A stretch of DNA of 64,000 bases from Candidatus Rariloculaceae bacterium (GCA_045561025.1 JBJKYM010000015.1:6599-70598), one strand, 5' to 3'. Shown: positions 24,479 to 59,808, numbered from the stretch's first letter. Program-made: numbers and translations. Notes: generated by a model from the letters alone, not told the origin.

Positions 24479-25474
24479 ATGATAAAAGCACGAGCAGCTA
24501 GATACTGGATCGGCACGCTGGCAGTGTTCATGGCCCTATCTTCATTCGCGCATCACGGCCCGCCGAATAACGTTCTCTACGATCTGGACAACATCGTAGA
24601 ACTCGAGGGAGAGGTCACCGAGCTCTTCTGGCGCAATCCCCACGTCCGTTTCAGAGTGCAGATCGACGGCAGCGATTCCGAGGTCTGGGGAATTGAATCG
24701 GGGCCGGTGACCTGGTTATTCCGGCTCGGCTGGACAGCCGACATCGTTTCAGTTGGCGATCATGTAAAAGTCGCAGGCTACGTTTCCAAGCGGCGCGCCA
24801 ACGAGATGGCTTTAACTAGTATGCTTTTACCCAGCGGACTAGAATTCACCGGCAGCGCCAGGCAGGGAGATCTGAGATTTTCTGACCAGCGTGTGGAAGT
24901 CGATCGGCAGGAGATTGCCGCCGCCGACAGGGAAGCGGCCATTCGCGAAGCCGACGGAATTTTTCGCGTCTGGGCATGGGGTGTGCGTGAGTTCGGCGGT
25001 GGTGGAACACCGGATAATGACGCCAGCGTCCTAACCGACGCTGCCCGAACCGCACGGGAGAATTTCGACATCGCTACGGACGAACCTTTTCTAAGTTGCA
25101 TTCAGGATGGAATGCCGCGGGCGATGTTTCATCCCTGTGTCATCGAATTCGTCGACGAGGGGGCTACGATCTCGTTCCGCAGCCACGAGCATGATATTCG
25201 GCGAACGATTCATATGTCGACAGACGTTGATGCTACGACGGTGTCACCAAGCTCGCTCGGTTACTCGGTAGGCGAATGGGACGGCGATACGCTTGTCGTA
25301 ACGACGACTCAGCTGAACTGGCATTTGTCGGACGAGATGGGTACGCCGCAGAGCCCGAATATGAGATTGCTCGAACGCTTCACGCCCGGCGCAAACGGTG
25401 AGCGGCTTGATTACGAGCTGACTTCATTCGACCCTGCTTATCTGACAGGGCCATCCGTGCGCACCGCGCATTAG
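24479..25474 (+). CDS. HH/NPH family member 1 (fused N+C domains), truncated by an in-frame TAG; full-length frame continues to 25540
   Basis: Signal peptide ...ALSSFA|HHGPP, WRNPH motif, C-domain motifs DGIFRVWAW, LSCIQDGMP, VGEWDGDTLVVTT. The TAG at 25472-25474 aligns with a Trp conserved in paralogs (GHWIWNPG / GVWIWLPG vs AH*MWVPG). The next 21 in-frame codons encode the conserved tail LELEPYEC. Confidence 0.8.
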   Translation: MIKARAARYWIGTLAVFMALSSFAHHGPPNNVLYDLDNIVELEGEVTELFWRNPHVRFRVQIDGSDSEVWGIESGPVTWLFRLGWTADIVSVGDHVKVAGYVSKRRANEMALTSMLLPSGLEFTGSARQGDLRFSDQRVEVDRQEIAAADREAAIREADGIFRVWAWGVREFGGGGTPDNDASVLTDAARTARENFDIATDEPFLSCIQDGMPRAMFHPCVIEFVDEGATISFRSHEHDIRRTIHMSTDVDATTVSPSSLGYSVGEWDGDTLVVTTTQLNWHLSDEMGTPQSPNMRLLERFTPGANGERLDYELTSFDPAYLTGPSVRTAH

Positions 25475-25596
25475 ATGTGGGTGCCGGGCTTGGAGCTAGA
25501 GCCCTACGAGTGCGAGGTTTGGGAGCGCCCCTCGGAATAGCGCAGCCATTCGCGTCCGATGATCAATATTCACGAACTCAGTTCAGGATGCCCGCT

Positions 25597-26595
25597 ATGA
25601 AATTCGTTGCTATCAATTTATTGCTGCTCGTCTCGTTCGACGCCGGGGCTCATCATGCCGTCACGGTTGCTTATGACACCAACAATCTGACCGCGATTGA
25701 GGGAGAGGTTACGAATGTATTCTGGCAGAATCCACATATCGTCGTGACCATTGAGCGAACGCTGGCGGACGGCAGTGTTGAGGAGTGGCGGGCCGAGTCG
25801 GGTTCGACGAATAGCCTCGAGCGAGTAGGCATCGGCAGGGACATTATCTCTATCGGCGATACGATCAGTTTGTATGGAGCGCCTTCCCGTCGGGGGATGA
25901 CGACGATGGCTGCCTATACGATGACGCTGGCGAGCGGTCGAGAAGTACCGCTATGGCCGCAGCGCGCGGTTCAACTTGGCAGGACGATCGAACAGGCGCC
26001 GATCTCCGAGGCCGCTGCCGATGCTGGTGAGCGTGCGGCCGATGGGATCTTTCGAATCTGGAGTCGTGTCGGAAGATCGCTACAGCTGGACGTGTCCTAC
26101 ACGCCCGAAGCTGTGGCAGCGCGTGAGGGATGGGACCCGCTGGCGGACGATCCCGCCCTGCAATGTATCCCACCCGGGATGCCGGGGATGATGAACAACC
26201 CCTACCCAATAGAGTTCGTCGACGAGGGTGACCGGATTCTTTTGAGACTCGAGGAATGGGACGGACTTCGCACTATTCATATGTCGGATGCGGCCCCAGA
26301 CGCTCAGGAGGCATCCGGCGTCGGTTACTCAACGGGGCAGTGGGAAGGAAACACGCTAGTCGTAACGACAACGAATATCGATGAGCCGTTCTTCGACGAT
26401 CTGGGAACACCGCAAGGCCCGGCGGTTCGGCTAGTTGAACGGTTCGTCTTAAGCGATACGCAGGACCGACTCGACTATCGAGTTACCGTTACGGACGCCT
26501 CGACTTTTGTCGAGCCTGCAACCCTGACGGGGCACTGGATCTGGAATCCGGGAGAAGAAATCAAGCCGTTTCAGTGCGCGCTACCGGACGCGTAA
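25597..26595 (+). CDS. HH/NPH family member 2 (fused N+C domains), exported, function unknown
   Basis: MKFVAINLLLLVSFDAGA|HHAV..., WQNPH, ADGIFRIW, LQCIPPGMPGMMNNPYPIEFVDEG, TGQWEGNTLVVTT, C-terminal KPFQC. Start at ATG 25597 (AGGA 8 nt upstream) rather than the ORF-track start 25477. Confidence 0.85.
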   Translation: MKFVAINLLLLVSFDAGAHHAVTVAYDTNNLTAIEGEVTNVFWQNPHIVVTIERTLADGSVEEWRAESGSTNSLERVGIGRDIISIGDTISLYGAPSRRGMTTMAAYTMTLASGREVPLWPQRAVQLGRTIEQAPISEAAADAGERAADGIFRIWSRVGRSLQLDVSYTPEAVAAREGWDPLADDPALQCIPPGMPGMMNNPYPIEFVDEGDRILLRLEEWDGLRTIHMSDAAPDAQEASGVGYSTGQWEGNTLVVTTTNIDEPFFDDLGTPQGPAVRLVERFVLSDTQDRLDYRVTVTDASTFVEPATLTGHWIWNPGEEIKPFQCALPDA

Positions 26596-26617
26596 CCAGT
26601 TACTACGTTGCTTGGTG

Positions 26618-27079: not shown

Positions 27080-27126
27080 ATCGATATCCCGAGACCTGTG
27101 TAATCGTGTATGTGCTGCCGGAGCGT

Positions 27127-27963: not shown

Positions 27964-27973
27964 AAAAAAGAAC

Positions 27974-28750: not shown

Positions 28751-28896
28751 GGCTACAAGAAGTGTAACGCATCAGTTTTACGGCTTCGCGACGTTCCGCG
28801 CTTGTGCTCATGATTTACATCTATAATAGAAACACTCGGCTGACGCCTCTAGATCAATACGAAGGCGAAGCCGTCGCAAAATATCGAGGGGAAAAT

Positions 28897-30174
28897 ATGA
28901 ACAGATCAATTCTGACCATGGCAGCGGCCGTTGCAGGTCTGGTGGCAATTCTCACAATCGGCAGCCGTCTCAGCAGTGCTCAGGAAGAACACACGCCGGG
29001 TACCGGGTTCGCGGCAGTGCCGGGACTCAAGGGGTGGCAAGACGTCTTCGGTCCCTACGAGCCGGTTCACGGATGGCCGAAGCCGCTTGCGGAAAGCGTT
29101 CCTGGCCATGAAGGGTGGACATGGTCCCAGTCGACCGACGTCTTCGTTGAACACGCCGATCGTATTCTTGTGGCCCAGAAAGGTGAGCTGCCGGTGCTGT
29201 CCGACGACATACCCAGAACCTGGTTGCCGGAGATCGGGCCTGGTATCAAATATCCCGTCGGTGGCCGCGTGCCACTACGAGAATCGTCTAGTGCGACTCC
29301 TGGCTACGGCAGAGCAAACCCTGACGGCAACGATGGTCGACCGGGCGTTGATTGGCGGTGGGAACACCTCATAGTCGTCTTCGATAGCGAAGGCAACATG
29401 ATTGAAGACTGGACGCGGTGGGACAGTATCTGGGGCCGGCCGCACGATATCGAGATCAGCCCCTACGATCCGGAGAAGCATGTCTGGATCGTTGACGCGG
29501 ATGCGCACTTCGTTACCAAGTTCAGCAATGATGGCAAAGAGCGCCTGCTGACGCTGGGAACGCCGGGCGTCCCCGGGGACGACGATACGCACCTGAATGA
29601 ACCAACGTTTCTTGCGTTCATGGACGAAGATACGTTCTATCTTGCCGACGGATACGAGAATACTCGTATCATTAAATACGACATGGATGGCAACATACTG
29701 CTGCAGTGGGGTATGAAGGGAACACCGCCCAACGAGCAGCGTCCGAGCCACTTCAATAACGTTCATGGTATCGCCGTTAATCCGATTACCCGGCAGGTTT
29801 TCATAAACGACCGTGACAATGGCCGCGTACAGGTCTTCGATGAGCATGGCAACTTTCTGGACCAATGGAGCATGGGTCCACGTCCGCCAATGAATATCCA
29901 CGATATTTACATGGGCGATGACGGAATACTTTGGGCGGCCGATCAGGGATCGAGCAAGCTCAATGGTTACGATGCCAGCGGGAACTTCATTTACTCATGG
30001 GGAACGTTCGGCGATTGTCAGGGCTGCATGTGGGGCGTACACGGTTTCCATACGGACATGGACGGCAATCTCTACACCTCGGAAGTGCGAACCGGTCGAG
30101 TCCAGAAGTACACGCCACGACCGGGAGCTAACCCCGCGTTCCTCGTAGGAAAGCCCTGGCCCAGAGTTTGGTAA
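28897..30174 (+). CDS. exported NHL-repeat six-bladed beta-propeller protein
   Basis: Signal peptide MNRSILTMAAAVAGLVAILT. Repeated NHL-like blades (HDIEISPYDPEKHVWIVDADAHFVTKF; HGIAVNPITRQVFINDRDNGRVQVFDEHGNFLDQW; NLYTSEVRTGRVQKY). Start trimmed to ATG 28897. Confidence 0.75.
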   Translation: MNRSILTMAAAVAGLVAILTIGSRLSSAQEEHTPGTGFAAVPGLKGWQDVFGPYEPVHGWPKPLAESVPGHEGWTWSQSTDVFVEHADRILVAQKGELPVLSDDIPRTWLPEIGPGIKYPVGGRVPLRESSSATPGYGRANPDGNDGRPGVDWRWEHLIVVFDSEGNMIEDWTRWDSIWGRPHDIEISPYDPEKHVWIVDADAHFVTKFSNDGKERLLTLGTPGVPGDDDTHLNEPTFLAFMDEDTFYLADGYENTRIIKYDMDGNILLQWGMKGTPPNEQRPSHFNNVHGIAVNPITRQVFINDRDNGRVQVFDEHGNFLDQWSMGPRPPMNIHDIYMGDDGILWAADQGSSKLNGYDASGNFIYSWGTFGDCQGCMWGVHGFHTDMDGNLYTSEVRTGRVQKYTPRPGANPAFLVGKPWPRVW

Positions 30175-30290
30175 CGATGTAGGCCTGTCAGGTCGCGAGA
30201 TACCAATATCGGTTTCGATCTCACGGTATAACTCGTGCCAGACGCGTCTGGTTTGATTGCAAGAATAAGAAAGTCCGTGGAGAGAATATT

Positions 30291-31961
30291 ATGAAGAAGA
30301 TGCTCTGGATTCAGCCCGCCTTGCTCCTGCTTCCCTGGGCATCGGCTTTTGCGCAGGATTTCCCACCCGGATTCGTCGATCCGATGCCGCTACTGGAAGC
30401 GGCGTCCGAGGAAATTGGCGAACGAAATTTTCAGTGCGTTACATTTTCCGGCACTGGCTACAGTGGTGCGGTCGGACAGACTTACGAGAATGCCGTCAAT
30501 ATAGACTGGACGCGTTATGAGATGGCGAATTACACACGCACGATTAACTGGAAAACTGGAACAAGCAAGGAGACGTTCGACAGGAATCTGGGACTGAATC
30601 CCGCGTCCTGGAAATACGGGCTCGGCTGGATGGGTGGTACACCCACCCAAAGGGAAACGCGTCAGACCTTTATCGTCAACGGCGACGTCGCCTGGGCGAT
30701 TGATGGTGATCGGCAACCTGTAGCTGCGACGGCCGAAGATGCGGAACTGTGGCAACTGGATATCTGGCTTAATCCGCCGGGATTCCTCAAAGCGGCGAGA
30801 ATGCCGGGGGCCGATCCAAAGGCTTTTTGGCGCTGGGAGCAGATTGAGATGGGCCGCGACGGAAACGTCGTAAATCTGACGAAGATGCACGTGGTGTCGA
30901 TCACTATGCTGGGCAAGTATCGTGTGGACGCCACGATAAACACTCAGAATCAGATTCAACGAATCCACGTCATGGTAAACGAGCCCGCTCTCGGTGATTT
31001 CAATATCGAGCAGGAGTCCACGAATCAGCAGCAATTCGGAGACGTGAAGTGGCCGACCAACTGGCACTCGCATCAGGGTTGGGACGATAATTGGCAGTTC
31101 GCCAGCGACAGCACCGGACACAATGCGTACGGTGGAATATTTGCCGATGTTCAACCGAACGTCTGCCCGGATCCCGTCCCTGTTCCGGAGAATCTGCAGC
31201 CGTCACCGCGACCGGATCCGGAGATCGTCAACGTCGTGAGAATGGCTGACGGCGTTTACCTGCTTGGCGGCGGCCCGGCCAATAGCTATATGGTTGAGTT
31301 TGAGGATTGGGTGGCCGTATTCGAAGCGCCGATTAATGAAAAGCGCAGCCTGGCGGTCATCGAGGAGGTTGTTAAGCTTGCGCCGAATAAACCGATACGA
31401 TGGCTGATCAATACGCACGTGCATTTCGATCACATCGGTGGGCTTCGGACTTACCTTCACATCGGGTCAACGATAATTACGCATCGAAAAAACATCGACA
31501 TGTTAAACCGGGATGTTCTGATTTACCGGACGCAGGAGGTAGAACCGGACATCACTTCGTTGTGGCCACCGACCGAGCTGGCCGAGGGTTACAACTACGA
31601 GGCGATCAATGAGAACTTCGTGATTACCGACAACGAGCGGATACTTCGAGTCTATTACGTTCAGCCGTTGGGTCATGCCACTGGAATGCTGATGGCTTAT
31701 CTGCCGGAAGAAAAAATCGCCTTTCAGGCCGACCTGTTCAATACGCACGAACCGCCGCCCGCGGAGCCGACGGCTGCGATGCAGAGCTTCTTTAATCAGA
31801 TACAACGGATGTCGTTGGATGTCGAGACGATCGCGCCCTCGCACGGTCAGCCCGTTCCCTATTCAGACTTTATCGATGCGATGGGAGACGGCGCGGAACT
31901 TTGCGAGACCGTGATCTCTGGCGGTGCCGTTGGCATGGTTCCCTGTGAGACCCTGGAGTAG
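30291..31961 (+). CDS. exported protein with C-terminal MBL-fold metallo-hydrolase domain
   Basis: Signal peptide MKKMLWIQPALLLLPWASAFAQ, about 300-aa N-terminal region of unknown type, then MBL motif LINTHVHFDHIGG. Confidence 0.75.
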   Translation: MKKMLWIQPALLLLPWASAFAQDFPPGFVDPMPLLEAASEEIGERNFQCVTFSGTGYSGAVGQTYENAVNIDWTRYEMANYTRTINWKTGTSKETFDRNLGLNPASWKYGLGWMGGTPTQRETRQTFIVNGDVAWAIDGDRQPVAATAEDAELWQLDIWLNPPGFLKAARMPGADPKAFWRWEQIEMGRDGNVVNLTKMHVVSITMLGKYRVDATINTQNQIQRIHVMVNEPALGDFNIEQESTNQQQFGDVKWPTNWHSHQGWDDNWQFASDSTGHNAYGGIFADVQPNVCPDPVPVPENLQPSPRPDPEIVNVVRMADGVYLLGGGPANSYMVEFEDWVAVFEAPINEKRSLAVIEEVVKLAPNKPIRWLINTHVHFDHIGGLRTYLHIGSTIITHRKNIDMLNRDVLIYRTQEVEPDITSLWPPTELAEGYNYEAINENFVITDNERILRVYYVQPLGHATGMLMAYLPEEKIAFQADLFNTHEPPPAEPTAAMQSFFNQIQRMSLDVETIAPSHGQPVPYSDFIDAMGDGAELCETVISGGAVGMVPCETLE

Positions 31962-31970: not shown

Positions 31971-32984
31971 TTGTTGACGAGAATGTCTTCGCGGACGAGT
32001 CTGTTGGCAACTGGTCTTCTGCTGTATGCCGCGCACGCAGGAGCCCACCACAGCGCGGTCCAGTTCGATCTGTCGGCCACAATCTCGTTCGACGCGGTCG
32101 TTACTGAGTTCGAATGGAAGAACCCGCACGTATTCGTTCAGGTCGACCGCGTCGATGATGAAGGTCAGGTGACCAGTCTGCAGATCGAAGCGGATGGTGC
32201 CTCGATGCTGACTCCCCATCGTTGGTCTCGAGATTCGCTGGAGCCCGGGGATCGCGTCATCGTGGAAGCCTATCCTGCGCGGCGTGCCGACGGCCGCTCG
32301 TTGCTGGGTTACTCGATAACGAAGCGCGACGGAACGGTTCTGTCTCCCAATCCGGATCGATTTATCAGCGAGCAGGTGAGTTCGCCTCAGGCTGCACGTA
32401 TCGAAGGCGTGTGGCTGCCCCGATGGGCAGCGTTCTTCCGTCTGAGAAATGCCCGGCTGCCACTCACGGAAGAAGGAAGGCAATTCCGGGAGGGACCGGA
32501 GTCGGAGCAGATACCATTGTACGAATGCGCTCCTTTCTCGACGCCGCGCATCATGGTGATACCCGTGCGGTCGGAGATCGAGATACTCACTGATCGTGTG
32601 TTGATTCGTGTGGACTGGCTGGATGTCGAGCGGGTCATCTACACGGATGGCCGTGAGCATCCGACCAATGGCCCGCGTACGCTTCAGGGGCATTCGATTG
32701 GCAACTGGGAAGGCGACACGCTCGTTATCGATACCGTGCTATTCAGTGATGAGTCTATGGGCGAGTACAGCCTGCCGAGTGGACCGGACAGGCACATAGA
32801 AGAACGGCTTAGTCTGAATGCAGACCGCCGGACACTCGACTACGCGTTCACGCTCGAGGATCCCGAGTATCTTACTGAGCCGGTTTCCGGCGGAGGAAGC
32901 TGGGATTATCGCCCCGAGTTGGAGCCGTCCTCGGTGGCCTGCGATCTGGAAGCCTCAAGACGAAATCTCGACACCACCGAGTAG
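31971..32984 (+). CDS. HH/NPH family member 3 (fused N+C domains)
   Basis: ...LLLYAAHAGA|HHSAVQFD, WKNPH, IEGVWLP, YECAPFSTP, IGNWEGDTLVIDT, C-terminal SSVAC. Start may be TTG 31971 or ATG 31983. Confidence 0.8.
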   Translation: MLTRMSSRTSLLATGLLLYAAHAGAHHSAVQFDLSATISFDAVVTEFEWKNPHVFVQVDRVDDEGQVTSLQIEADGASMLTPHRWSRDSLEPGDRVIVEAYPARRADGRSLLGYSITKRDGTVLSPNPDRFISEQVSSPQAARIEGVWLPRWAAFFRLRNARLPLTEEGRQFREGPESEQIPLYECAPFSTPRIMVIPVRSEIEILTDRVLIRVDWLDVERVIYTDGREHPTNGPRTLQGHSIGNWEGDTLVIDTVLFSDESMGEYSLPSGPDRHIEERLSLNADRRTLDYAFTLEDPEYLTEPVSGGGSWDYRPELEPSSVACDLEASRRNLDTTE

Positions 32985-38002: not shown

Positions 38003-38791
38003 ATGTCACGAACTCAAGTACCAGGAACAATTTTGGTCCTGTCCGCTCTCGTCTCGCCGATGGCAGTAGCACAGCATGGCATGCCTGGCGGAATTCCGAT
38101 GAGCTTTTTCGTAACCAGCGAGCCGGTTGGCGACGGTGGTGATCTGGGCGGTCTGGCAGGCGCTGATGCGCACTGCCAAAGACTCGCGGAGGACGTTGGC
38201 GCCGGCGATTTCACCTGGCGAGCCTATCTCAGCACCCAGGACAAGCCGGGTGCGCCGGCGGTCAACGCGCGTGATCGAATCGGCGAAGGACCCTGGCACA
38301 ACTACGACGGCGTTATGATCGCGAGTAGTCTGGCGCACTTGCACGGCGACACGCTGGAGCTCGCGCGCATGGGCAACAACCTGCACAAGCAATCCGGGCT
38401 CACTGAGAAGGGCGCTATCGTACCCGGACTCTACGATTTTCTGGATCCCCGGGATATCGACTGGGAGTACGTCAAGAACACGCCATATTCGAATCGCCAC
38501 GAGGTCATCACCGGCTCACAGCCTGATGGTCGCGCCTATCCGCCCGGAGTCGATTACACCTGCGACAGCTGGACCAGTAACGCCGATCCTGGGCCCGATA
38601 TCGACCTGTCCGGACTGGGCGGCGGCGCGAACAGGCCGAACGCACAGATTGGTTTCCCCGACCGGGAGGGGGGCGGCAACGGCTCCTGGAATTCTTCTCA
38701 CGGCACGCGCGGCTGCAGCCAGGTAGCCCTGCCATTAACCCATGGAATCGGTCAGTTCTACTGTTTCGCCCTGACGGGAGACGAGCGATGA
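38003..38791 (+). CDS. exported endostatin-like (DUF1554-like, C-type-lectin fold) protein, paralog A
   Basis: Signal peptide, then FFVTSEPVGDGGDLGGLAGADAHCQRLAEDVGAGDFTWRAYLST...RDRIGEGPW...YTCDSWTS...RGCSQ...FYCFAL. Four Cys in the same order and context as collagen XVIII endostatin ([13 protein letters not shown]...TFRAFLSS...YCETW...SCHH...VLCIE). Confidence 0.6.
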   Translation: MSRTQVPGTILVLSALVSPMAVAQHGMPGGIPMSFFVTSEPVGDGGDLGGLAGADAHCQRLAEDVGAGDFTWRAYLSTQDKPGAPAVNARDRIGEGPWHNYDGVMIASSLAHLHGDTLELARMGNNLHKQSGLTEKGAIVPGLYDFLDPRDIDWEYVKNTPYSNRHEVITGSQPDGRAYPPGVDYTCDSWTSNADPGPDIDLSGLGGGANRPNAQIGFPDREGGGNGSWNSSHGTRGCSQVALPLTHGIGQFYCFALTGDER

Positions 38792-39534: not shown

Positions 39535-40194
39535 ATGAGAAAGCGACGATCGACACTTCTTCTGGGCGCTGCGGTGGCCAGCCTGAGCTTCGCTGGAGCC
39601 GTTTCGGCGGCCCCCTTCATAGATGGAATCTGGGATCCTGTATTCGAACGGGGGTTGGGACACCCACCGCCAGAGGACGTGAAACTAACGGCTGCCGGAC
39701 AGGCTGCGTATGACAGTTTCTCAAAAGAATCCGACCCGACGTTGAAATGCATCATGCCGGGCGTGCCTCTTGGAATTTACGATCCATATCCGCTGGAAAT
39801 AATTCAGCAGGATCATCAGGTTGTGTTTCTGCATGAGCACTTTCACATGGTGCGTCGATTCTTTACCGATGGAAGAGACGTGCCCGATAACTGGTGGCCG
39901 TCACTGGTTGGCTTCTCCGTAGGAAACTGGGAAGGCGATACGCTGGTCGTTAAGACCACCCATATGTCGTCCGACAACATCATGTGGCACAGCGGGATGC
40001 CGTTCTCCGGAGACCCTGAGTCCTATGTCATCGAACGCTATGATTTCGACGGCGACGAGATGACTCTCACCGCTGAAGTATTCGACCCTACCTATTTTGA
40101 GGAGCCGTATGTTATTCGCAGCCGCCGCGTGAGAAATCCTGACGGCATGATTTTCGAATATGAGTGCTACGCTGAATTCAGTGGCGCAGAATAA
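39535..40194 (+). CDS. HH/NPH family: stand-alone C-domain protein
   Basis: Signal peptide, then FIDGIWDP, LKCIMPGVPLGIYDPYPLEIIQQDHQVVFLHE, VGNWEGDTLVVKTT, VIERYDF...LTAEVFDPTYFEEPY, C-terminal FEYEC. No HH/NPH domain. Confidence 0.8.
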   Translation: MRKRRSTLLLGAAVASLSFAGAVSAAPFIDGIWDPVFERGLGHPPPEDVKLTAAGQAAYDSFSKESDPTLKCIMPGVPLGIYDPYPLEIIQQDHQVVFLHEHFHMVRRFFTDGRDVPDNWWPSLVGFSVGNWEGDTLVVKTTHMSSDNIMWHSGMPFSGDPESYVIERYDFDGDEMTLTAEVFDPTYFEEPYVIRSRRVRNPDGMIFEYECYAEFSGAE

Positions 40195-40211: not shown

Positions 40212-40634
40212 ATGTTGAACAAGAAAACCATTCTGTTGACTTTGGCGGGTGGCTGCCTGACCGCTGCGCTTCCCGCATCGGGTCACCACAGCACCTTCAA
40301 CTACTACGATCCGGAGGTCATCGTCGAGTACGAAGACGTAACGGCAGTATCGTTCGAGGTAATGAACCCGCACGCACGGCTTGTGTTTCTCGTAACCGAT
40401 GATGATGGCAACGAGGTCGAGTGGACCGCAACCACACAGAGCGCCAACGTTCTTCGTCGCATGGGGATAAGCGCTGATTCAATTCGTCCCGGAGACAAAT
40501 TGACGGTCACTGCTTCGCCGCATAGGGAAGGGCTGAATCTCGTCCTGATGACCGAAGTTGCCTGGGAGAACGGAGACTACGCCGTTCTCTCAATCGGTGC
40601 TTCCGGTGGACTGTTTCGCGCCGACGCTGAGTAG
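40212..40634 (+). CDS. HH/NPH family: stand-alone N-domain protein (DUF6152-like)
   Basis: MLNKKTILLTLAGGCLTAALPASG|HHSTFNYYDPE..., VMNPH, WTATTQSANVLRRMGISADSIRPGDKLTVTA; 140 aa; GGAG RBS. Confidence 0.8.
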   Translation: MLNKKTILLTLAGGCLTAALPASGHHSTFNYYDPEVIVEYEDVTAVSFEVMNPHARLVFLVTDDDGNEVEWTATTQSANVLRRMGISADSIRPGDKLTVTASPHREGLNLVLMTEVAWENGDYAVLSIGASGGLFRADAE

Positions 40635-42296: not shown

Positions 42297-43943
42297 ATGA
42301 GCGGGACAATGGTTAATATTCAGTTAGTAAAGGTCGCCAGGAAACACGTGTTGAACAATATCGTCTCATTGGAATTTCCGATTTTCGTCCGGCGGAGAGC
42401 TGCTTTGGCTGGCGCCTGTGCCATTTTCGCGTTGCTCAGCGCTGGCATGGCGTCGGCGCAGTCGCTGCCACGCACGGCGGATGGCAATCCCGATCTTCAG
42501 GGAATCTGGCGTGCCGTCAATCGTGCCGGCTACGATCTCGAAGGTCATGCGCCCCGGCACGATATGCCGGCTGGCATCGGTGTCGTCGACGGTGGGTCCA
42601 TTCCGTACCAGCCGTGGGCGGCCGAACAGAGGCTCGCTAACTTTGAGGCACGCGCTACGGCGGATCCGCTCTCGAAGTGTTTTCTCCCCGGCGTGCCTCG
42701 GGTTACCTCGCTGGAGTTTCCATTCCAGATATTTCAGATGGAGGAACATGTTGCGATCACCTATGAGTGGCAGCAGGTCTATCGCCTGATCTATACGAAC
42801 GGCGAGCCACCTTTATATGGCGGAATTCCTTCCTGGATGGGTAATTCACGCGGCCATTGGGACGGCGACGTATTCGTTGTTGAGGTCATGGACCAGAATG
42901 GCAATACCTGGCTGGATGCTGCCGGAAACTTCCACAGCGACGCTATTCAGGTAACCGAGCGTTATAGCCTGCGCGACGAAAACACGATCGACTACGAGGC
43001 GACGATTGAAGATCCGAACGTGTTCACGCGACCGTGGACTTTGCGGCTCGTACTGCAGCGGCAAACGCATATGGATCGTCTGCTCGAGTATCAATGTCAG
43101 GCGCTTGTAGAAGAAGAGAATGGCGCATTCGAGCGCGATGAGCCGACCTGGTATCCCGCGGCGCTTCCTGCCGACAACGAGCCGTTCGACGCTGACGCCG
43201 GTGCGGATCTGGCACTGCCGGAACCGGAATCGGAGATTAGAAGGCTGGCCGATGGCACGCCTGATATCAGCGGCTATTTTATGGCTGATGCGGGAGGCGC
43301 GAATTACGGTCTGGAGGCTCACCCACGCGAAATCATGCTGCCGCCAAGCCGCGGTCAGGTTATTGATCCGACAGACGGCTCATTACCGTATCAGGCGTGG
43401 GCAAGAACTGAGCGTATGGATCGCGAGCAGCCACACCGGGGTTACGACGATCCGACCGCGCATTGCATCGTCGCCGGCGTTCCAAGATCACACTATGTTC
43501 CCGCGCCGTTTTATATTCTTCAGCCGCCGGGTTACGTCGTCGTTCTTCATGAGCGAATGTCGTGGCGTCAGATTGCTCTGGAAGAACGTGAGCCGCTACC
43601 CGACAACATTCGCCTCTGGCAGGGGGATTCGATCGGGCGCTGGGAAGGAGATTCGCTGGTCGTCGAGTCGCAGAATTTCAATGGAAAAGCCTGGCTCAAT
43701 GAGGCAGGCGACGTCGCCAGTCACATGCTGAAGGTCGTTGAGACATTCACGCCCGGCAGCGACTCCCAGGTGATCTATCGGGCGACACTGACTGATCCGA
43801 TTTCATACACGCGGCCGTATACGATAGAGATGCCATTCAATCGATCTCACGACGAACTGCTGGAGGTTGCCTGCCTCGAAGATAACGGCGATCTGCAGCA
43901 TCTAAAGGATGTGCGTGACGAGCACCGTGCAAATCAGAATTGA
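42297..43943 (+). CDS. HH/NPH family: protein with two tandem C-domains
   Basis: Signal region RRRAALAGACAIFALLSAGMASAQ. Copy 1: LQGIWRAV, SKCFLPGVPRVT, RGHWDGDVFVVEV, LEYQC. Copy 2: ISGYFMAD, AHCIVAGVPRSH, IGRWEGDSLVVES, LLEVAC. Exact start uncertain. Confidence 0.8.
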   Translation: MSGTMVNIQLVKVARKHVLNNIVSLEFPIFVRRRAALAGACAIFALLSAGMASAQSLPRTADGNPDLQGIWRAVNRAGYDLEGHAPRHDMPAGIGVVDGGSIPYQPWAAEQRLANFEARATADPLSKCFLPGVPRVTSLEFPFQIFQMEEHVAITYEWQQVYRLIYTNGEPPLYGGIPSWMGNSRGHWDGDVFVVEVMDQNGNTWLDAAGNFHSDAIQVTERYSLRDENTIDYEATIEDPNVFTRPWTLRLVLQRQTHMDRLLEYQCQALVEEENGAFERDEPTWYPAALPADNEPFDADAGADLALPEPESEIRRLADGTPDISGYFMADAGGANYGLEAHPREIMLPPSRGQVIDPTDGSLPYQAWARTERMDREQPHRGYDDPTAHCIVAGVPRSHYVPAPFYILQPPGYVVVLHERMSWRQIALEEREPLPDNIRLWQGDSIGRWEGDSLVVESQNFNGKAWLNEAGDVASHMLKVVETFTPGSDSQVIYRATLTDPISYTRPYTIEMPFNRSHDELLEVACLEDNGDLQHLKDVRDEHRANQN

Positions 43944-43957: not shown

Positions 43958-44362
43958 ATGACGAAATTTATCCAGGCGGCCCTCGCTGCAACAGTTTTTA
44001 CGGCAACATGTTTCTCAGGTGCTGCGCTGGCGCATCATGCCTTCGCCGCGGAGTTCGATAGAGACAAGCCCGTACACATGACGGGTACGGTCACAGAGAT
44101 GAAATGGTCCAATCCACACGGATGGATCTACCTTGATGTCGAGGACGAGAACGGTAACGTCGTGAATTGGGCCTTCGAGACGCGCGCTGCGAACAACCTG
44201 ATCCGCATCGGCTGGCGCCCGAGCGATCTGCCGGTTGGAACCGTACTCGAGGTAAACGGTTATCAGGCACGAAACGACACACCGACTGCGAGTCTCGCCG
44301 GCGCAGTTCTGCCGGACGGCCGCACGCTATTTTCCGGCACTCCGGATTCCGACGAGGACTAG
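43958..44362 (+). CDS. HH/NPH family: stand-alone N-domain protein (DUF6152-like)
   Basis: MTKFIQAALAATVFTATCFSGAALA|HHAFAAEFDRDKPVHMTGTVTEMKWSNPHGWIYLDV...WAFETRAANNLIRIGWRPSDLPVGTVLEVNG; 134 aa from ATG 43958. Confidence 0.82.
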   Translation: MTKFIQAALAATVFTATCFSGAALAHHAFAAEFDRDKPVHMTGTVTEMKWSNPHGWIYLDVEDENGNVVNWAFETRAANNLIRIGWRPSDLPVGTVLEVNGYQARNDTPTASLAGAVLPDGRTLFSGTPDSDED

Positions 44363-44418: not shown

Positions 44419-45450
44419 GTGAAACAGATCTCAGCACTGCTTACCCTGTTCGTTGCGTTCGCGGCGTCACCGGTCTCCGCCCACCACAGCGCGTCGATAT
44501 TCGACCGCGATACTGTTCTGGTCTTTCCGGGCACCGTTACCCGATTCAACTGGGCCAACCCGCATGTCTATATCTATGTCGCGACGCGCGATGATGCGGG
44601 TCGAATCATCGAGTGGGAGATAGAAACCGACGCGACGCCGATTCTGCTGCGCAGCGGCTGGACCTCCGAGTCGTTACAACCGGGCAGCCAGGTTGTCGTG
44701 CGCGCCAATCCGGACAGGAACGTCAATAGAAATCATGCGTTGCTGGTCTCGATTGAGAGAGAAGACGGTGCTGTATTCGCGGCGCGGTCTGATTTTCTTC
44801 GAACGGAAGACGAAAGCGACCTGCTGGCTTCTGCCGCGAGCATGAACGGCATATGGGAGCTCAGCTACAGGGACTACAACTCGTTCTACGCTGTCTGGGC
44901 AGAGGTCGCTTTAACCGAAAAGGCGCTGGCAGCGCAGGCGACTTATGACGCCAGGGTGGAAGCGCCAGCCGCACAGTGCATTGCGCATCCGACGCCGACT
45001 ATCCTGGTTGCCCCCTATGCAAATGAGATCGTCATTCAGGACGATGTGGTGTTAATCAGGAACGAGCGTTTCAATATTGAGCGTACGGTGTATATGGACG
45101 GGCGCGGTCATCCTGAGAACGGAGAGCCCTCCAATCAGGGGCATTCCATTGGCTGGTGGGAGGACGACGTTCTTGTCTTCGACACGACGCTGTTCGCCAA
45201 CAACAGATCGCCGATATTCGGGCGGCCGATACGACCCGGGGGCGTTCCATCTGGTCCCGGCAAGCACGTTGTGGAAAGATTGGCGTTGAGTGACGATGGC
45301 ACGCGTATCGTTATCGACTTCACCCAGGAGGATCCGGAGTATCTTGCGGAACCGTTCAGTAGCACCGTGGAGTGGTATTTCGCGCCGCACCTGGAGATGC
45401 GTGGGTTTGGCTGCGACTCCGAGAACGCTACGCGATTCACGCTTGAGTGA
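44419..45450 (+). CDS. HH/NPH family member (fused N+C domains)
   Basis: GTG 44419 gives (M)KQISALLTLFVAFAASPVSA|HHSASIFD, WANPH, MNGIWELS, AQCIAHPTP, IGWWEDDVLVFDT, C-terminal RGFGC. The longer ORF-track start (44167) overlaps the previous gene and is rejected. Confidence 0.8.
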   Translation: MKQISALLTLFVAFAASPVSAHHSASIFDRDTVLVFPGTVTRFNWANPHVYIYVATRDDAGRIIEWEIETDATPILLRSGWTSESLQPGSQVVVRANPDRNVNRNHALLVSIEREDGAVFAARSDFLRTEDESDLLASAASMNGIWELSYRDYNSFYAVWAEVALTEKALAAQATYDARVEAPAAQCIAHPTPTILVAPYANEIVIQDDVVLIRNERFNIERTVYMDGRGHPENGEPSNQGHSIGWWEDDVLVFDTTLFANNRSPIFGRPIRPGGVPSGPGKHVVERLALSDDGTRIVIDFTQEDPEYLAEPFSSTVEWYFAPHLEMRGFGCDSENATRFTLE

Positions 45451-45503: not shown

Positions 45504-46517
45504 ATGAGGTTAATTCAGGTTTTCATGGCTGTCGGCGCGTCGCTCGGCGTGCTTAGCGCGCATGGTCATCATGCTTCAGCCGGAATCTACGACCGAAACG
45601 ATATCGGCGAGATCCAGGGCGAAATTACCTCGGTCTTCTGGCGCAATCCTCATGTTCGTTTCAACGTCTCCCGTATCGGCGATGGTGGCGAGGAAGAAAC
45701 CTGGGAGATTGAGTTCGGCTCGGTTAATACGGTCGAGCGTCTGGGCGTCACGCGCGAAAGGGTCAACGTAGGCGATCAGATTTCCGTAACAGGTAGCCTG
45801 GGGCGTAACGGCATGCATGTCATGTTCGCCGGCGCTGTCACCTTGTCCACGGGCGAGGAGTTGTTGCTCCAGGCGCCCTCGGCTGTCCGCTACGGAATTA
45901 CCGAGCAGGCCGTAGATGAATCCCGCGATGCCGATACCGAGCTGCGGGCCGACATCTTTCGTGTATGGCTTCCAAGTGAGCGCCCCGAAACCGGTTCGGG
46001 TACAACCGAGTATCCGTTGACCGACGTTGGCCGCGCGGCACAGACAGGCTGGGATGCGACCGACGACCCGGCGCTGCGCTGTATCCCGCCCGGCATTCCG
46101 ACGGCCATGGACAACCCCTACCCGATAGAGTTTATAGATCAGGGTGGCACGATCACTATGCTGCTGGAGGAATGGGACGGGGTCCGAACGATCTTCATGA
46201 ACGACAACGGCGACCAGCAACCGGCACAGCCGCGAATGGGATATTCGCGAGGGCGTCAGGAAGGAAACACGTTGGTTGTAGAGACCAGCGATATCGCCTG
46301 GCGATATGTAGACGATCTCGGCACGCCGATGAGCGAAGATGCCGTCATCGAAGAACGGTTTACGCTGATCGACGACGGAACGAGCCTGGAATGGGTTGCG
46401 CGCATCACGGATCCGGTGAATTTCACCGAGCCGGTCGTTATGGAGGGTGTATGGATCTGGCTACCCGGCCACGAGATCAAGCCTTTCAACTGCGCGTTAC
46501 CGGGCGATGGCGACTGA
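45504..46517 (+). CDS. HH/NPH family member (fused N+C domains)
   Basis: MRLIQVFMAVGASLGVLSAHG|HHASAGIYD, WRNPH, ADIFRVW, LRCIPPGIPTAMDNPYPIEFIDQG, RGRQEGNTLVVET, KPFNC. By eye the closest paralog of the 25597 gene. Confidence 0.85.
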   Translation: MRLIQVFMAVGASLGVLSAHGHHASAGIYDRNDIGEIQGEITSVFWRNPHVRFNVSRIGDGGEEETWEIEFGSVNTVERLGVTRERVNVGDQISVTGSLGRNGMHVMFAGAVTLSTGEELLLQAPSAVRYGITEQAVDESRDADTELRADIFRVWLPSERPETGSGTTEYPLTDVGRAAQTGWDATDDPALRCIPPGIPTAMDNPYPIEFIDQGGTITMLLEEWDGVRTIFMNDNGDQQPAQPRMGYSRGRQEGNTLVVETSDIAWRYVDDLGTPMSEDAVIEERFTLIDDGTSLEWVARITDPVNFTEPVVMEGVWIWLPGHEIKPFNCALPGDGD

Positions 46518-47297: not shown

Positions 47298-48362
47298 ATG
47301 CAATATCGGCTGCTCATCGCATCCATTGCGTTACTGACTCTTAGTTCGGGCGGGCGGCTCCATGCGCATCATGGTGCCGCCGCTCATTTCGATCCCAACG
47401 ATGTGGTGACGCTTAATGGCGTCATTACCGAGCTGCAGTTCGTCAATCCACATTCATTCGTCCACATCGACGTCAGCGATCCCAATGGCGAAGTGACATC
47501 CTGGCGCTGCGAGCTCTCCGGCACCTCACAACTTTTACGACGCGGCTGGACCCCCGAGACACTGGCGCCTGGACAATCGATAGAACTGGTTGGCGAACGT
47601 GCGCGTCGCGAAGCAAACTCCTGCGCCATGTTGACCATCGCGTTCACCGACGGAAAGGTCATCGAAGCGGGCGAAGCTATTGAGGGCGCGGCGATTCCGC
47701 AGGCTGTCGCCAGCTCGGAGGTGGCAGCCAGGCGCTCAAAATATCTGGCGAACGGTCAGCCCAACTTCGCCGGATCCTGGGTCGCTCAAACCGGTAACGC
47801 CACTGGCGGTGCGGTTACGAACGGCGCACCGGTCCCAACAGCGGCAGGGGTCGCGGCCTCGGAGCGTTTCGACTTCCGATTCGACAATCCGGTGATTCGC
47901 TGCGAGAGCGGCAATATCATCGCGGACTGGTACAGGCAGTCGCACGTCAACGAGATCGAACAGGACGATAATCGAATTACGCTGCGCTATGGTTATCTCG
48001 ATCTTGTACGCACCATTCATCTTGATGTGGTCGAACATCCGGATATTGCTGTGCCGAGTGTGGTAGGGCATTCCATCGGGCACTGGGACGGCGACGTGCT
48101 TGTCGTCGATACCCTCGGGTTTCAAGAGCTGGCGCTGCATCCACGTCAGGAGATCATGCTTAGCAGTCAGGCTCGCATCGAGGAGCGCTTCTTCTACGAT
48201 GACGCGACGCGTACGCTGGTTCGCGACTACACTATTTTCGATCCGCAGTATCTCGAACAGCCTTATAGCGGTCGGAATGTCGCGGACATCGCCGCCAGAC
48301 CGTACCAGCCGTTCGAGTGCGTTGATCTAAGCGGTGAGAATAAACGCCGACCAGTAGAATAA
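47298..48362 (+). CDS. HH/NPH family member (fused N+C domains)
   Basis: MQYRLLIASIALLTLSSGGRLHA|HHGAAAHFD, FVNPH, FAGSWVAQ, IRCESGNI, IGHWDGDVLVVDT, QPFEC. Confidence 0.8.
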   Translation: MQYRLLIASIALLTLSSGGRLHAHHGAAAHFDPNDVVTLNGVITELQFVNPHSFVHIDVSDPNGEVTSWRCELSGTSQLLRRGWTPETLAPGQSIELVGERARREANSCAMLTIAFTDGKVIEAGEAIEGAAIPQAVASSEVAARRSKYLANGQPNFAGSWVAQTGNATGGAVTNGAPVPTAAGVAASERFDFRFDNPVIRCESGNIIADWYRQSHVNEIEQDDNRITLRYGYLDLVRTIHLDVVEHPDIAVPSVVGHSIGHWDGDVLVVDTLGFQELALHPRQEIMLSSQARIEERFFYDDATRTLVRDYTIFDPQYLEQPYSGRNVADIAARPYQPFECVDLSGENKRRPVE

Positions 48363-52530: not shown

Positions 52531-53895
52531 ATGTCACGATCCAAGATTCGAGTCGCTCAATTTCTGGCAGCCACCACGCTGACGATTTTTGCCAGTGGCG
52601 GTTTCGGTTATCCGTCGATCTACCCGACGGGGACGACGATCTACGATCCGGACAGGGCGTGGAACGGCTACACGATTCATCCGACGCCAGAGGGCAAGGG
52701 CGCCGTCCTGATAGATATGAACGGTAACGTTATCCGGCGATTTGCTGAGTTCACCAGTTCGCCGATCAGGATCATGCCAGGTGGCTATATCATGGGCGGC
52801 AGCGGTGAGGCAGTCGTACAACTGGACTGGGATGGCAACGAGGTCTGGCGGTTCGATCGCACGGAGCAGATCGAAGACGAGGATGGCAACAGGATCTGGT
52901 CGGCCCGTCAGCATCACGATTGGCAACGCGAGGGGAGTCCGGCCGGTTATTACTCGCCTGACTCGGCACCCGAGCAGACGAGCGGCCGGACACTGATACT
53001 CGCGTTCAGGAATCTGACCGTCCCGGAGATCAGCGACAAGCGTCTGCGTGACGACTATTTTCTGGAGGTGTCGTGGGATGGCGAGATTCTTTGGGACTGG
53101 ACCTTAAGCGATCATGTCGATGAGCTTGGCCTCTCGGAAGCTGCCCGGAATGCCATATACCGTCATCCTGGCTGGAACGAGGGAACTCAGAGCGCAGACT
53201 GGATGCACATCAACTCGCTGTCCTACATCGGACCGAATCGTTGGTACGACGACGGCGATGAGCGTTTCCACCCGGACAATGTGATATTCAGCAGTCGATC
53301 CGCGAACATCGTCGCAATCGTCAGCCGCTCGGGCAATATCGTCTGGCGTGTGGGCCCCGACTACCGCGAGACCAGGGAGATGCGCGAGATCGGTCAGGTC
53401 ATTGGTTAGCATCACCCACATATGATTCCTGAAGGGCTACCGGGCGCGGGCAATATCATGGTCTTCGACAACGGTGGGGGCGCCGGCTTCGGCGAGTCGA
53501 ATCCGTTCGCGCCCGACGGTCGTTTTATCGTCGAGCGTTACAGTTCGCGGGTGCTCGAGATCGATCCAGTGACGATGGAGAAGGTCTGGGAGTACTCAAT
53601 TCAGGGGCACGGTCGCTTTCACTTCTTCAGTCACAACGTCAGCATGGCGCAGCGGCTACCTAACGGTAATACGCTTATCACCGAAGGGGCAGCCGGTCGG
53701 GTATTCGAGGTCACCGTAGAAGGCGAGATTGTTTGGGAGTACCTCAATCCATTCTTCTACGAGCCGGACGATACGCGACACAATATTTATCGCGCCTATC
53801 GCGTGCCTTACGATTGGATTCCACAGCTTACTCCGCCCGAGGAGCGCGCTGTCGTGCCGCCGCACCCGAGCGAATTTCGGATCGAACCGCAATGA
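52531..53895 (+). pseudogene. arylsulfotransferase (ASST)-like beta-propeller gene interrupted by one in-frame TAG
   Basis: ORFs 52531-53409 and 53422-53895 are in one frame: ...EMREIGQVIG*HHPHMIPEGLPGAGNIMVFDNGGGAGFG.... N-terminus TTIYDPDRAWNGYTIH and HINSLSY are ASST-like. TAG at 53407-53409. Confidence 0.65.
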
Positions 53896-53940
53896 ACCGG
53901 ATGCGCAGCGCAGCCAGAAAGACGCAGTCAGGAGAACCGT

Positions 53941-55233: not shown

Positions 55234-55246
55234 ATCGAGAGGACGA

Positions 55247-56608: not shown

Positions 56609-56622
56609 ATTCTCGATCGTCC

Positions 56623-58649: not shown

Positions 58650-58761
58650 TCTCCGAGCGGATTACTCTGTCGGTACATTTCGAAAGATTCATCCGGCCGG
58701 GGCTGAAATCGAAAATTTCGAGGTATATTTAGCTAACTCTTCATTTCAGGGTCGCTCGCCT

Positions 58762-59808
58762 ATGTTCAGAAGTCTTGCCGGTATCGTTGCCGCGTTCCTT
58801 TGCCTGACCGGAGCTCAGGCTCACCACTCTGTAACCCACTTCTCGCCGGATTTCACCGAGATGGAGGGTACGCTCGTCGATCTCAAGTGGCGCAATCCGC
58901 ATGTCTATTTCTATCTCGAAGTCGAAGAGGATGACGGTTCGACCCGAGTCTGGGAAATGGAGGCGGGCACGATCTATATGATCGGGCGTGCGGGCGTAAC
59001 GCGCGATATGTTCACAATCGGCGAGCGGGTTCGAGTCGCCGGGAACAGGTCGACCGTTTATGAGGACAAATTCTGGTTGACCAATGTTCTGCTTTCCGAC
59101 GGCCGTGAAGTTCTCGTCGTGGCACGCGGAGCACCGCGCTGGGCGGATGACCTGATCGGTGGGAGAAATCAGTGGAGCAACGCCGCGCTGCATGACGACA
59201 ACACCAACGATGCTGATGAGGGAATTTTTCGCGTCTGGAGTCCGCCGGGGCCTGATGCGGGCGTAGTGGTCGTGAGCGATCCCGAGCAGCGACAGTTGGC
59301 CAGCATCGCGACTGCCGCATCACTTGCCGTTCGCGAGACCTGGGATCCCTACGCCTTCGACGAAGCATGTGAGCGCGCCGGTACGCCGCGCGTCAACTTC
59401 GGTCCGCACCCACATCAGTTAATCGAAGACGGTGAGGACATTCTACTGCTCTCGGAAGAATTCGATCTTACGCGCAGATTTCATATGAATAGCGATCTGG
59501 ACCCCGAAGATCAGCCGCTGTCCAAGCTCGGGTTTTCCGTTGGTCGCTGGCAGGACGACAGGACGCTGGTCGTCGAGACATCACGCGTGAATTTTCCCTA
59601 CATGAGCCTTGCCGGTTATGGTCAAAGCGAACAGATGCGGATGACCGAGGTCTATACGTTGAGCGAGGACGAAACGCAGCTGGCCTATAAGGTGACGATC
59701 ACCGATCCCGTGATGCTGACGGCGCCTTATATACAGACCGGAGTCTGGGTCGACCTGGGAGAGGGCATGGTCGGCTACGACTGCGTCCCATCGGCCAATA
59801 GCGAATAA
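58762..59808 (+). CDS. HH/NPH family member (fused N+C domains)
   Basis: MFRSLAGIVAAFLCLTGAQA|HHSVTHFS, WRNPH, EGIFRVWSP, EACERAGTP, VGRWQDDRTLVVET, VGYDC. Start trimmed to ATG 58762. Confidence 0.82.
   Translation: MFRSLAGIVAAFLCLTGAQAHHSVTHFSPDFTEMEGTLVDLKWRNPHVYFYLEVEEDDGSTRVWEMEAGTIYMIGRAGVTRDMFTIGERVRVAGNRSTVYEDKFWLTNVLLSDGREVLVVARGAPRWADDLIGGRNQWSNAALHDDNTNDADEGIFRVWSPPGPDAGVVVVSDPEQRQLASIATAASLAVRETWDPYAFDEACERAGTPRVNFGPHPHQLIEDGEDILLLSEEFDLTRRFHMNSDLDPEDQPLSKLGFSVGRWQDDRTLVVETSRVNFPYMSLAGYGQSEQMRMTEVYTLSEDETQLAYKVTITDPVMLTAPYIQTGVWVDLGEGMVGYDCVPSANSE

Follow-up and report, generated by a model that had tools for sequence, protein, structure and literature searches.

DUF6152 (Pfam PF19649) is a bacterial domain of about 100 residues that has not been characterised and whose members share an NPH motif. 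We analysed a 64,000-nucleotide stretch from a Candidatus Rariloculaceae bacterium (GCA_045561025.1, JBJKYM010000015.1:6599-70598; the whole stretch is called the window), in which eleven genes encode exported proteins that contain DUF6152 (the N-domain), a second domain of about 200 residues (the C-domain), or both. The N-domains share their size, signal peptide, His-His pair (HH) and NPH motif with PF19649, and the products of genes 40212 and 43958 (genes are named by their first nucleotide in the window) are typical stand-alone members. While the Pfam entry covers the N-domain only, DUF6152 is here mostly fused to, or encoded beside, an uncatalogued domain modelled as a β-barrel. We tentatively interpret the family as periplasmic metal-dependent redox proteins with paralogue-specific small-molecule ligands.

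Histidine-brace copper proteins (LPMO families AA9-AA17, CopC, the CuB site of PmoB/AmoB, X325 and YcnI) resemble DUF6152, at the level of sequence, in an invariant His exactly at the signal-peptide cleavage site, where the amino terminus and the imidazole would be free, in an invariant distal His and in a periplasmic location. In the brace proteins, Cu is held in a T-shaped N3 geometry by NH2 and N-pi of His1 and N-tau of a further His. Differences are the scaffold, which is an oligonucleotide/oligosaccharide-binding (OB) fold in the models of DUF6152 and an Ig-like or cupredoxin-like sandwich in the brace proteins, and residue 2, which is a second invariant His in DUF6152. The two groups have no sequence relationship, and the metal site of DUF6152 is a predicted one. 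The C-domain in turn resembles the intracellular lipid-binding proteins of the calycin superfamily (FABP4/5, CRABP2, CRBP, UnaG and NanoLuc/Oplophorus luciferase) in its modelled topology of one strand, a helical lid and 8-9 further strands, and its conserved Arg may serve an anionic head group. Unlike these proteins, to which it has no sequence similarity, the C-domain is about 60 residues larger, exported and stapled by a predicted disulphide. It carries its own set of Arg, Glu and Asp residues (97-98% conserved) and a G.S.G.W(E/D)G motif, and it is partnered with a metal-site-like domain or a cytochrome c. A further comparison is offered by quinoprotein chains with periplasmic mediators, such as methanol dehydrogenase with cytochrome cL, or methylamine dehydrogenase with amicyanin and cytochrome c551i. 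Relatives likewise have, within one locus, genes for a periplasmic pyrroloquinoline quinone (PQQ) enzyme, for a dedicated c-type cytochrome and for a putative metal protein that is small and exported. However, DUF6152 lacks the Cys and Met ligands of type-1 copper, and nothing in those chains corresponds to the lipid-binding-type barrels.

Listing and translation of the open reading frames (ORFs) confirm eleven family genes on the plus strand between 24479 and 59808, with a coding total of 10,302 nt and products of 331, 332, 337, 219, 140, 548, 134, 343, 337, 354 and 348 aa in gene order. Seven are fused N-C genes, one is C-only (39535), one is a C-C tandem (42297) and two are N-only (40212 and 43958). 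The N and C parts were split and aligned with MAFFT, and hidden Markov models (HMMs) were built from the alignments. Leave-one-out HMMs find each copy again, with E-values of 1e-24 to 1e-34 for N and 3e-29 to 3e-59 for C. The genes are as follows:

24479..25474 (+), fused N-C protein of 331 aa, truncated by a TAG codon; DUF6152 E 7.8e-15, leave-one-out N 6.7e-31 and C 7.8e-52
25597..26595 (+), fused N-C protein of 332 aa; DUF6152 E 6.8e-20, leave-one-out C 3.2e-59; public gene calls use the same start
31971..32984 (+), fused N-C protein of 337 aa; DUF6152 E 2.6e-21, leave-one-out N 4.8e-29 and C 1.6e-42
39535..40194 (+), C-only barrel protein of 219 aa that has a signal peptide of its own and is encoded first in a split pair; leave-one-out C 1.8e-42, no Pfam match
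40212..40634 (+), N-only DUF6152 protein of 140 aa, partner of 39535; DUF6152 E 7e-15
42297..43943 (+), tandem C-C two-barrel protein of 548 aa; C-domain matches at residues 54-279 and 311-534; public start at 42309
43958..44362 (+), N-only DUF6152 protein of 134 aa, partner of 42297; DUF6152 E 2.4e-29
44419..45450 (+), fused N-C protein of 343 aa, modelled with AlphaFold2; DUF6152 E 5.3e-26, 1,643 homologues at E≤1e-5
45504..46517 (+), fused N-C protein of 337 aa; DUF6152 E 9.4e-18, leave-one-out C 3.2e-53; found on 5 public contigs
47298..48362 (+), fused N-C protein of 354 aa; DUF6152 E 6.3e-22; best relative 69% identical, in a Rhodospirillaceae metagenome-assembled genome (MAG)
58762..59808 (+), fused N-C protein of 348 aa; DUF6152 E 1.6e-15, leave-one-out N 5.7e-27 and C 2e-41

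The N and C HMMs were run against the 714 six-frame ORFs of the window that are 50 aa or longer, and they match these eleven genes only. A prediction made earlier from the sequence alone (the original prediction) had counted eleven genes, with the same starts, that carry nine N-domains and ten C-domains in about 10 kb of coding sequence, all of which the HMM and ORF analysis bears out. Signal peptides support export, as had also been proposed. For 31971, public gene calls start at 32004; the ATG at 31983 gives the most plausible signal peptide and is the likely start. Orthologues of 39535 are 50-83% identical to it, and none of them carries a Pfam domain.

Relatives were collected in a locus survey queried with an orthologue alignment, at one genome per species. 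The survey returned more than 583 confirmed matches, of which the best 80 were examined, and neighbouring genes were compared in a set of 55 genomes; the surveyed loci include near-duplicates and are selected for the N-C form. All of the best 80 matches lie in MAGs. They belong to Rariloculaceae, the lineage of the window, other Gammaproteobacteria, Rhodospirillaceae, Micropepsaceae, Acidobacteria, Gemmatimonadales and Pirellulales.

All nine N-domains match DUF6152 at 55-102 bits, against a gathering threshold of 27 bits, and all nine contain NPH; the resemblance to DUF6152 had been stated correctly in the original prediction. The window copies match no other Pfam family, and neither sequence nor modelled fold places them with LPMO, CopC or PmoB. 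We assembled 217 N-domains from the 55 genomes. In the 208 that entered the HMM alignment, both residues of HH and the Pro and His of NPH are each 100% conserved, the Asn of NPH is found in 95% and a Glu on strand 3 in 80%. The HH-to-NPH segment could be scored in 200 sequences, and in every one of these HH follows the signal peptide. The preceding residue is Ala, Gly or Ser in 195 and position -3 is Ala, Val, Ser, Leu, Gly, Thr or Ile in 198, a pattern that fits the signal peptidase I rule. The spacing between HH and NPH is 21-27 residues, with 23-24 in 170 of the 200. The remaining 17 of the 217 domains are truncated ORFs or xPH variants, in which HH is retained.

Because HH directly follows an AxA-type signal peptidase site, the mature chains are predicted to begin with His1-His2. 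In all known histidine-brace classes the N-terminal His is exposed by signal-peptide cleavage, which leaves the amino terminus unmasked for copper chelation (PMC10952591). The invariant His of NPH maps to the turn between strands 1 and 2, a placement based on sequence and modelled secondary structure. Mainly because the invariant His lies exactly at the cleavage site, as in histidine-brace proteins, we infer that His1, His2, the (N)PH His and usually the strand-3 Glu form a mononuclear metal site that uses the free amino terminus. Copper would be the most likely metal.

The AlphaFold2 model of the mature N-only protein 43958 is an OB-fold with a predicted local distance difference test score (pLDDT) of 86.4. 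Foldseek matches it to generic OB-folds only (PriB, SSB and LysRS, target template modelling (TM) score about 0.5). The full-length protein 44419, modelled on a 73-sequence alignment (pLDDT 87.5, predicted TM score 0.82), consists of a 5-strand N-domain followed by one strand, a helical segment and 8 more strands. Against the Protein Data Bank (PDB), its N part again retrieves OB-folds (SSB and the anticodon-binding domain of LysRS), and its C part retrieves CRABP2, FABP4/5, CRBP3, UnaG and NanoLuc with a probability of 1.0, E-values from 3e-4 and target TM scores of 0.54-0.64. A search of viral structures gives generic OB-fold and SSB matches only. The structural comparison suggested with the original prediction thus yields, at the level of models, an OB-fold followed by a FABP-like barrel.

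The C-domain is modelled as a FABP/calycin-like antiparallel β-barrel of about 200 residues and about 10 strands with a helical lid after strand A. Among 193 C-domains, a Cys in the lid is conserved in 100%, an Arg in 98%, a Glu in 98%, an Asp in 97% and a Cys in the C-terminal tail in 92%; the two Cys residues are predicted to form a conserved disulphide that staples the barrel. No Pfam or NCBIfam model matches the C-domain in the window copies, and a diverse set of 72 family members gives no match to it either. None of these 72 has a lipocalin or FABP Pfam match at E≤0.01, nor do the window proteins at E≤0.1, and searches of PDB sequences with full-length and C-domain profiles give chance matches only (E 0.4-2.4), with no relative of either domain. 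The family comprises 17,615 cluster representatives at 50% identity at E≤1e-3, and 10,743 at E≤1e-10. The barrel is predicted to hold one small hydrophobic or amphipathic organic molecule.

The two domains are closely linked. The survey found 279 family genes in 82 loci, with up to 12-14 members per 14-19 kb. With the window and near-duplicate loci included, the architectures are 148 N-C, 84 N, 78 C, 2 C-C and 1 N-C-C. A solo N gene lies within 300 nt on the same strand of 51 of the 73 solo C genes, and a solo C gene within 300 nt of 48 of the 75 solo N genes, in loci that are N-C-selected. The split pairs of the window are separated by 17 nt (39535/40212) and 14 nt (42297/43958), and the C-then-N order of the former is also found in relatives L010-L012. 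The split form is also present on plasmids of cultured sphingomonads (for example Croceibacterium and Sphingobium), in many cases with a TonB-dependent receptor gene next to it. The N and C modules probably work as one unit, whether they are fused or encoded by neighbouring genes.

The barrel fold raises the possibility that the proteins are non-catalytic periplasmic carriers. Hydrophobic or amphipathic nutrients imported through TonB-dependent receptors would be bound by the barrel and passed on to transporters of the inner membrane or to enzymes of the periplasm. The OB domain would serve for docking or regulation, and the paralogues would reflect ligand diversity, as with solute-binding proteins. 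FABPs bind the carboxylate of their ligand through an Arg, which the near-invariant Arg of the barrel resembles, and most members of the superfamily are carriers. TonB-dependent receptors are neighbours in 9 of the 55 genomes and adjoin the family genes on the Croceibacterium and Sphingobium plasmids, while ABC ATPase and TctA transporter clusters recur near the family. Transport leaves unexplained, however, why HH stands exactly at the processed terminus in 200 of 200 sequences and why the P-H pair is invariant. Nor does it account for the fact that so many relatives have the barrel fused to cytochrome c, or for the operon with a PQQ dehydrogenase, both described below. We regard carriers as a serious but rather unlikely alternative.

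The MAFFT alignments recover HH, NPH, W..E and R.GW as conserved columns of the N-domain, and C..G.P, G.S.G.W(E/D)G(D/N).LVV, ER, DP and the terminal Cys as those of the C-domain. The motifs listed in the original prediction are therefore upheld, with the terminal Cys of 24479 as the sole exception. The gene ends 21 codons early at an in-frame TAG (25472-25474) and so loses this Cys. Past the TAG the frame runs on to 25540 and reads 'MWVPGLELEPYEC...'; the 21 codons, 'MWVPGLELEPYECEVWERPSE', encode the conserved W.PG..Y.C tail of the family including the second Cys. The L016 orthologue has a Leu at the TAG position and its frame continues, and the TAG of 24479 is present in 3 independent public assemblies (L005-L007). 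It represents either a recent nonsense mutation or a read-through codon. A second amber-interrupted exported gene in the island encodes an arylsulfotransferase, whose two ORFs (292 and 157 aa; 52531-53895) are one frame split by a TAG at 53407-53409 inside 'IG*HHPH'; its relatives are single proteins of 521 aa. TAG is otherwise an ordinary stop codon here, used by 21 of 52 genes.

Paralogues in the window share 20-38% identity in the N-domain and 20-47% in the C-domain. The closest full-length pair is 25597/45504 (38% N, 47% C), as had been judged by eye; 24479/25597 are nearly equal in the C-domain (46%). Repeats at the DNA level are short, motif-sized matches of 63-83% identity. For all eleven genes the best match in another genome (38-78% identity) exceeds the best match within the window (28-45%), and some of the best outside matches of these paralogues fall in Alphaproteobacteria. 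Since every paralogue is closer to a gene of another genome than to its neighbours, the comparison points to an old, maintained expansion, in agreement with the original prediction. Recent duplication and gene conversion are rejected in view of the 20-47% identity, the closer outside matches and the short DNA repeats.

A connection to electron transfer is provided by other members of the C-domain family. One representative, P0307, consists of a signal peptide, a monohaem cytochrome c with the motif CQACH, and the barrel. Of 8,000 relatives scored in a search with P0307, 7,988 have E≤1e-5, and 119 of the best 120 carry both PF13442 and the barrel. Judged by sequence, fusions of the barrel with a monohaem cytochrome c number in the thousands among the relatives, which suggests that the module takes part in electron transfer in the periplasm. 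In all six independent genomic contexts, the genes for the cytochrome c-barrel protein, a second barrel and DUF6152 form an operon in this order (the triad operon). A PQQ-repeat propeller protein is encoded within 7 kb in all six; it has 579-663 aa in five of them, and 411 aa with weaker PQQ matches in L111.

The pair 42297/43958 corresponds to this module. In BLASTP comparisons with P0307, one barrel of 42297 (barrel 1) is 53% and the other 38% identical, and 43958 is 49% identical to the DUF6152 protein of the triad operon. The 53% and 49% identities mark the window pair as the predicted haem-less, barrel-fused counterpart of the triad. Barrel family, DUF6152 partner, gene order and tight linkage are common to both. 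In contrast to the triad, the window pair has both barrels in one protein, no haem domain and no PQQ dehydrogenase nearby: a CxxCH motif is missing from 42297/43958, and the annotation of the window includes no PQQ gene. The other nine window genes, by comparison, belong to subfamilies without the cytochrome c-barrel operon.

In the redox interpretation that we tentatively favour, signal peptidase I would cleave before HH and free the His1-His2 terminus for metal. These residues, the (N)PH His and usually the strand-3 Glu would then build a mononuclear site similar to a histidine brace, to which the barrel would present a small organic substrate. The metal site would oxidise or otherwise redox-transform the substrate and exchange electrons with c-type cytochromes. 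The eleven diverged paralogues would differ in the substrates that they accept, in an island of exported catabolic enzymes.

Several observations weigh against this interpretation. The Glu is conserved in just the 80% given above, and 40212 lacks it. An OB-fold is, to our knowledge, not found in any histidine-brace protein, and the Foldseek matches of the mature 43958 model include no OB protein that binds metal. The N-terminus is of low confidence in the full-length 44419 model (pLDDT <50 up to residue 22) and of moderate confidence in the mature 43958 model (mean pLDDT 74 for residues 1-10). We considered cytochrome c as a universal neighbour of the fused N-C type and rejected it, as CxxCH ORFs are scattered and multi-haem proteins occur within 10 kb in about 9 of the 55 genomes. 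A PQQ dehydrogenase as general partner of N-C loci was likewise discarded, since it is found in 2 of the 55 genomes only and is specific to the cytochrome c-barrel operon. Finally, the metallo-β-lactamase (MBL), NHL propeller, sulfatase, amidohydrolase and TonB receptor genes near the family fit transport or hydrolysis equally well.

A more specific version of the redox proposal, which we consider improbable at present, is that DUF6152 is an OB-fold histidine-brace copper centre. DUF6152 and the barrel would make up a soluble oxygenase or peroxygenase of the periplasm, with small molecules that are hydrophobic or recalcitrant as substrates. C-type cytochromes would supply the electrons, which in triad operons would be recycled from the neighbouring PQQ alcohol dehydrogenase. 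If this were true, the system would be a soluble analogue of the proposed coupling between particulate methane monooxygenase and methanol dehydrogenase, diversified into substrate-specific paralogues.

The same N-terminal signature could instead serve metal handling. DUF6152 would be a chaperone for Cu (or Ni/Zn) like CopC, YcnI and CusF; the barrel would bind a metallophore, as lipocalins such as siderocalin do, or pass the metal to cuproenzymes; and the small membrane protein DUF6644 would move the metal across the inner membrane. CopC, YcnI and X325, which carry an N-terminal His signature, are mostly transport proteins (PMC10952591). DUF6644 pairs follow N-only genes in 4 MAG loci, 3 of them with split C+N cassettes, and lie beside 2 sphingomonad cassettes; one triad locus encodes a putative PHM/DBH-like copper monooxygenase, and efflux pumps of the resistance-nodulation-division type occur in 5 genomes. 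On the other hand, the trafficking of a single metal hardly accounts for nine or more diverged copies within 35 kb, or for as many as 14 in other MAGs, and the window has no copA, cusABC, copCD or metal-regulator genes. DUF6644 itself gives an hhalign probability of 0.6% against E. coli YebZ (CopD). Weakened by the high copy number and by this negative comparison, metal handling seems to us an unlikely role.

DUF6644 proteins are small, mostly paired membrane proteins with four transmembrane segments, one invariant His and a GRxI(x)Y/F tail. They are encoded in L015 (8851-9821), L041 (9409-9897), L075 (6308-7272), L085 (14820-15796), L108 (2313-3288) and L094 (10009-11027), and there is no DUF6644 gene in the window. 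In the four MAG loci they come directly after the N-only gene, and the split barrel and DUF6152 cassette is found in L015, L075 and L085; in the two cultured sphingomonads their genes are next to the cassette but on the other strand. Possibly, these proteins serve the system as a membrane partner. We rejected homology to CopD, which had been hinted at by weak DUF2214 matches (E 0.0015-0.026), and do not count DUF6644 as evidence for copper because the hhalign comparison with YebZ is negative.

Some loci of relatives also encode proteins with haem motifs. The putative monooxygenase is a 439-aa exported protein in L097 (10364-11683) with a CQTCH haem motif and weak matches to both halves of PHM/DBH-like copper type II ascorbate-dependent monooxygenases. 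HH, HxH, HxH and M motifs are visible, and the same locus encodes a PQQ dehydrogenase and an NHL propeller in addition to the cytochrome c-barrel and DUF6152 proteins. In unrelated genomes, the neighbourhood of family genes repeatedly includes a small protein with a C-terminal CxxCH motif and a weak match to cytochrome c' (class II) (L108, 1795-2229; L097, 2332-2829).

Within the window, the family genes are accompanied by the following features:

22319..23308 (+), exported dihaem c-type cytochrome with two CxxCH motifs, at the upstream edge of the island
28897..30174 (+), NHL-repeat β-propeller protein (Pfam NHL E 1.6e-11); neighbour cluster c1, in 12 of 55 genomes
30291..31961 (+), MBL-fold protein (Pfam Lactamase_B), directly upstream of 31971; neighbour cluster c0, in 12 of 55 genomes
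59830-60858, second copy of the MBL-fold protein, directly downstream of 58762

The 22319 cytochrome is a possible electron partner. A homologue with 41% identity, the sole one found, lies directly upstream of the 44419 orthologue in L008, and dihaem cytochromes c are encoded directly upstream of 44419 and 39535 orthologues in related genomes.

Across the 55 genomes, the commonest neighbours of N-C genes are MBL-fold proteins (12 genomes), NHL propellers (12), TonB-dependent receptors (9), Ldh_2 (7), sulfatases (6) and DUF6644 (6). Aromatic-cleavage enzymes of the LigB and RraA types and amidohydrolases also recur, and the island of the window additionally contains arylsulfotransferase, SGL, BKACE, Abhydrolase_10 and M20 peptidase genes. 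Taken as a whole, this is a catabolic island of mixed content with no fixed operon. A dedicated single pathway, as put forward in the original prediction, is not established, as the neighbours are heterogeneous and even the best partner families reach only 12 of 55 genomes.

A further alternative is a periplasmic metallo-hydrolase, in which a His3-Glu zinc site on the OB domain would hydrolyse esters, lactones or sulfate esters held by the barrel. It would work side by side with the MBL, NHL/SGL propeller, sulfatase, esterase and amidohydrolase enzymes that are encoded nearby. Enzymes of hydrolase type dominate the surroundings, the MBL genes of the window directly flank 31971 and 58762, and the additional enzymes of the island fit the same picture. 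Yet zinc hydrolases do not typically bind their metal through an N-terminal amine and His, a mode of coordination characteristic of redox and binding sites for Cu or Ni, and the cytochrome c fusions and PQQ-dehydrogenase operons indicate electron transfer. Zinc hydrolysis is accordingly the explanation we rate as least probable. A role in sulfur scavenging was prompted by arylsulfotransferase, rhodanese and sulfatase neighbours and hinted at by Sphingobium TomTYG65 (tauD, an ssuD-like gene, a sulfonate-binding protein and a rhodanese); it was rejected, being inconsistent across loci.

Directly upstream of 39535/40212, two overlapping ORFs (38003-38791 and 38788-39498) encode paralogous exported proteins with weak similarity to DUF1554, and homologues of this cluster are found in 5 of the 55 genomes. 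The exported-enzyme island begins at about 22.3 kb, and the first 22 kb of the window are of housekeeping type. They include a 1,601-aa NAD-glutamate dehydrogenase (8730-13535, minus strand) and an integrase-family (XerD-like) gene beside dsbC (20308-22180, plus strand). A thiamine pyrophosphate riboswitch at 20-128 on the plus strand (Rfam RF00059, 65 bits) precedes genes for a TonB-dependent receptor, a Pnu-type transporter (NMN_transporter family) and an APH/choline-kinase-like kinase (179-3828), which together are probably a thiamine-salvage operon. In L102, a called ORF of 380 aa (4811-5953) is made up nearly entirely of 'MGTATA/METATA'-type repeats and is likely a tandem DNA repeat and no real gene.

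The N-domain was thus already catalogued as DUF6152, while the barrel family, the N-C architecture, the HH processing signature and the link to cytochrome c and PQQ are undescribed in the literature. A literature search returned no paper on DUF6152 and nothing relevant for DUF6644, for a histidine brace combined with an OB-fold or for PQQ combined with a lipocalin. The view that neither domain is functionally characterised accordingly stands, as there is no DUF6152 paper, no Pfam or NCBIfam model of the C-domain and no relative among PDB sequences. The gap is large: at least 17,615 clusters at 50% identity contain the barrel, for which there is no curated model. Multi-copy arrays are found in uncultured bacteria from marine sediment, sponges and soil, including Rariloculaceae, other Gammaproteobacteria, Rhodospirillaceae and Acidobacteria. 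Since cultured sphingomonads carry split versions, the function of the module is experimentally tractable; natural hosts include Croceibacterium atlanticum 26DY36, Novosphingobium humi KACC 19094 and Sphingobium sp. TomTYG65. If the proteins are carriers, they would constitute a new class of periplasmic binding proteins. A copper histidine brace, if confirmed, would be the first on an OB-fold and the first paired with a lipid-binding-type barrel. The range of oxidative copper chemistry, now polysaccharides and methane, would then also include small organic molecules of the periplasm, and much of the metagenomic 'dark matter' in catabolic islands would be assigned a role.

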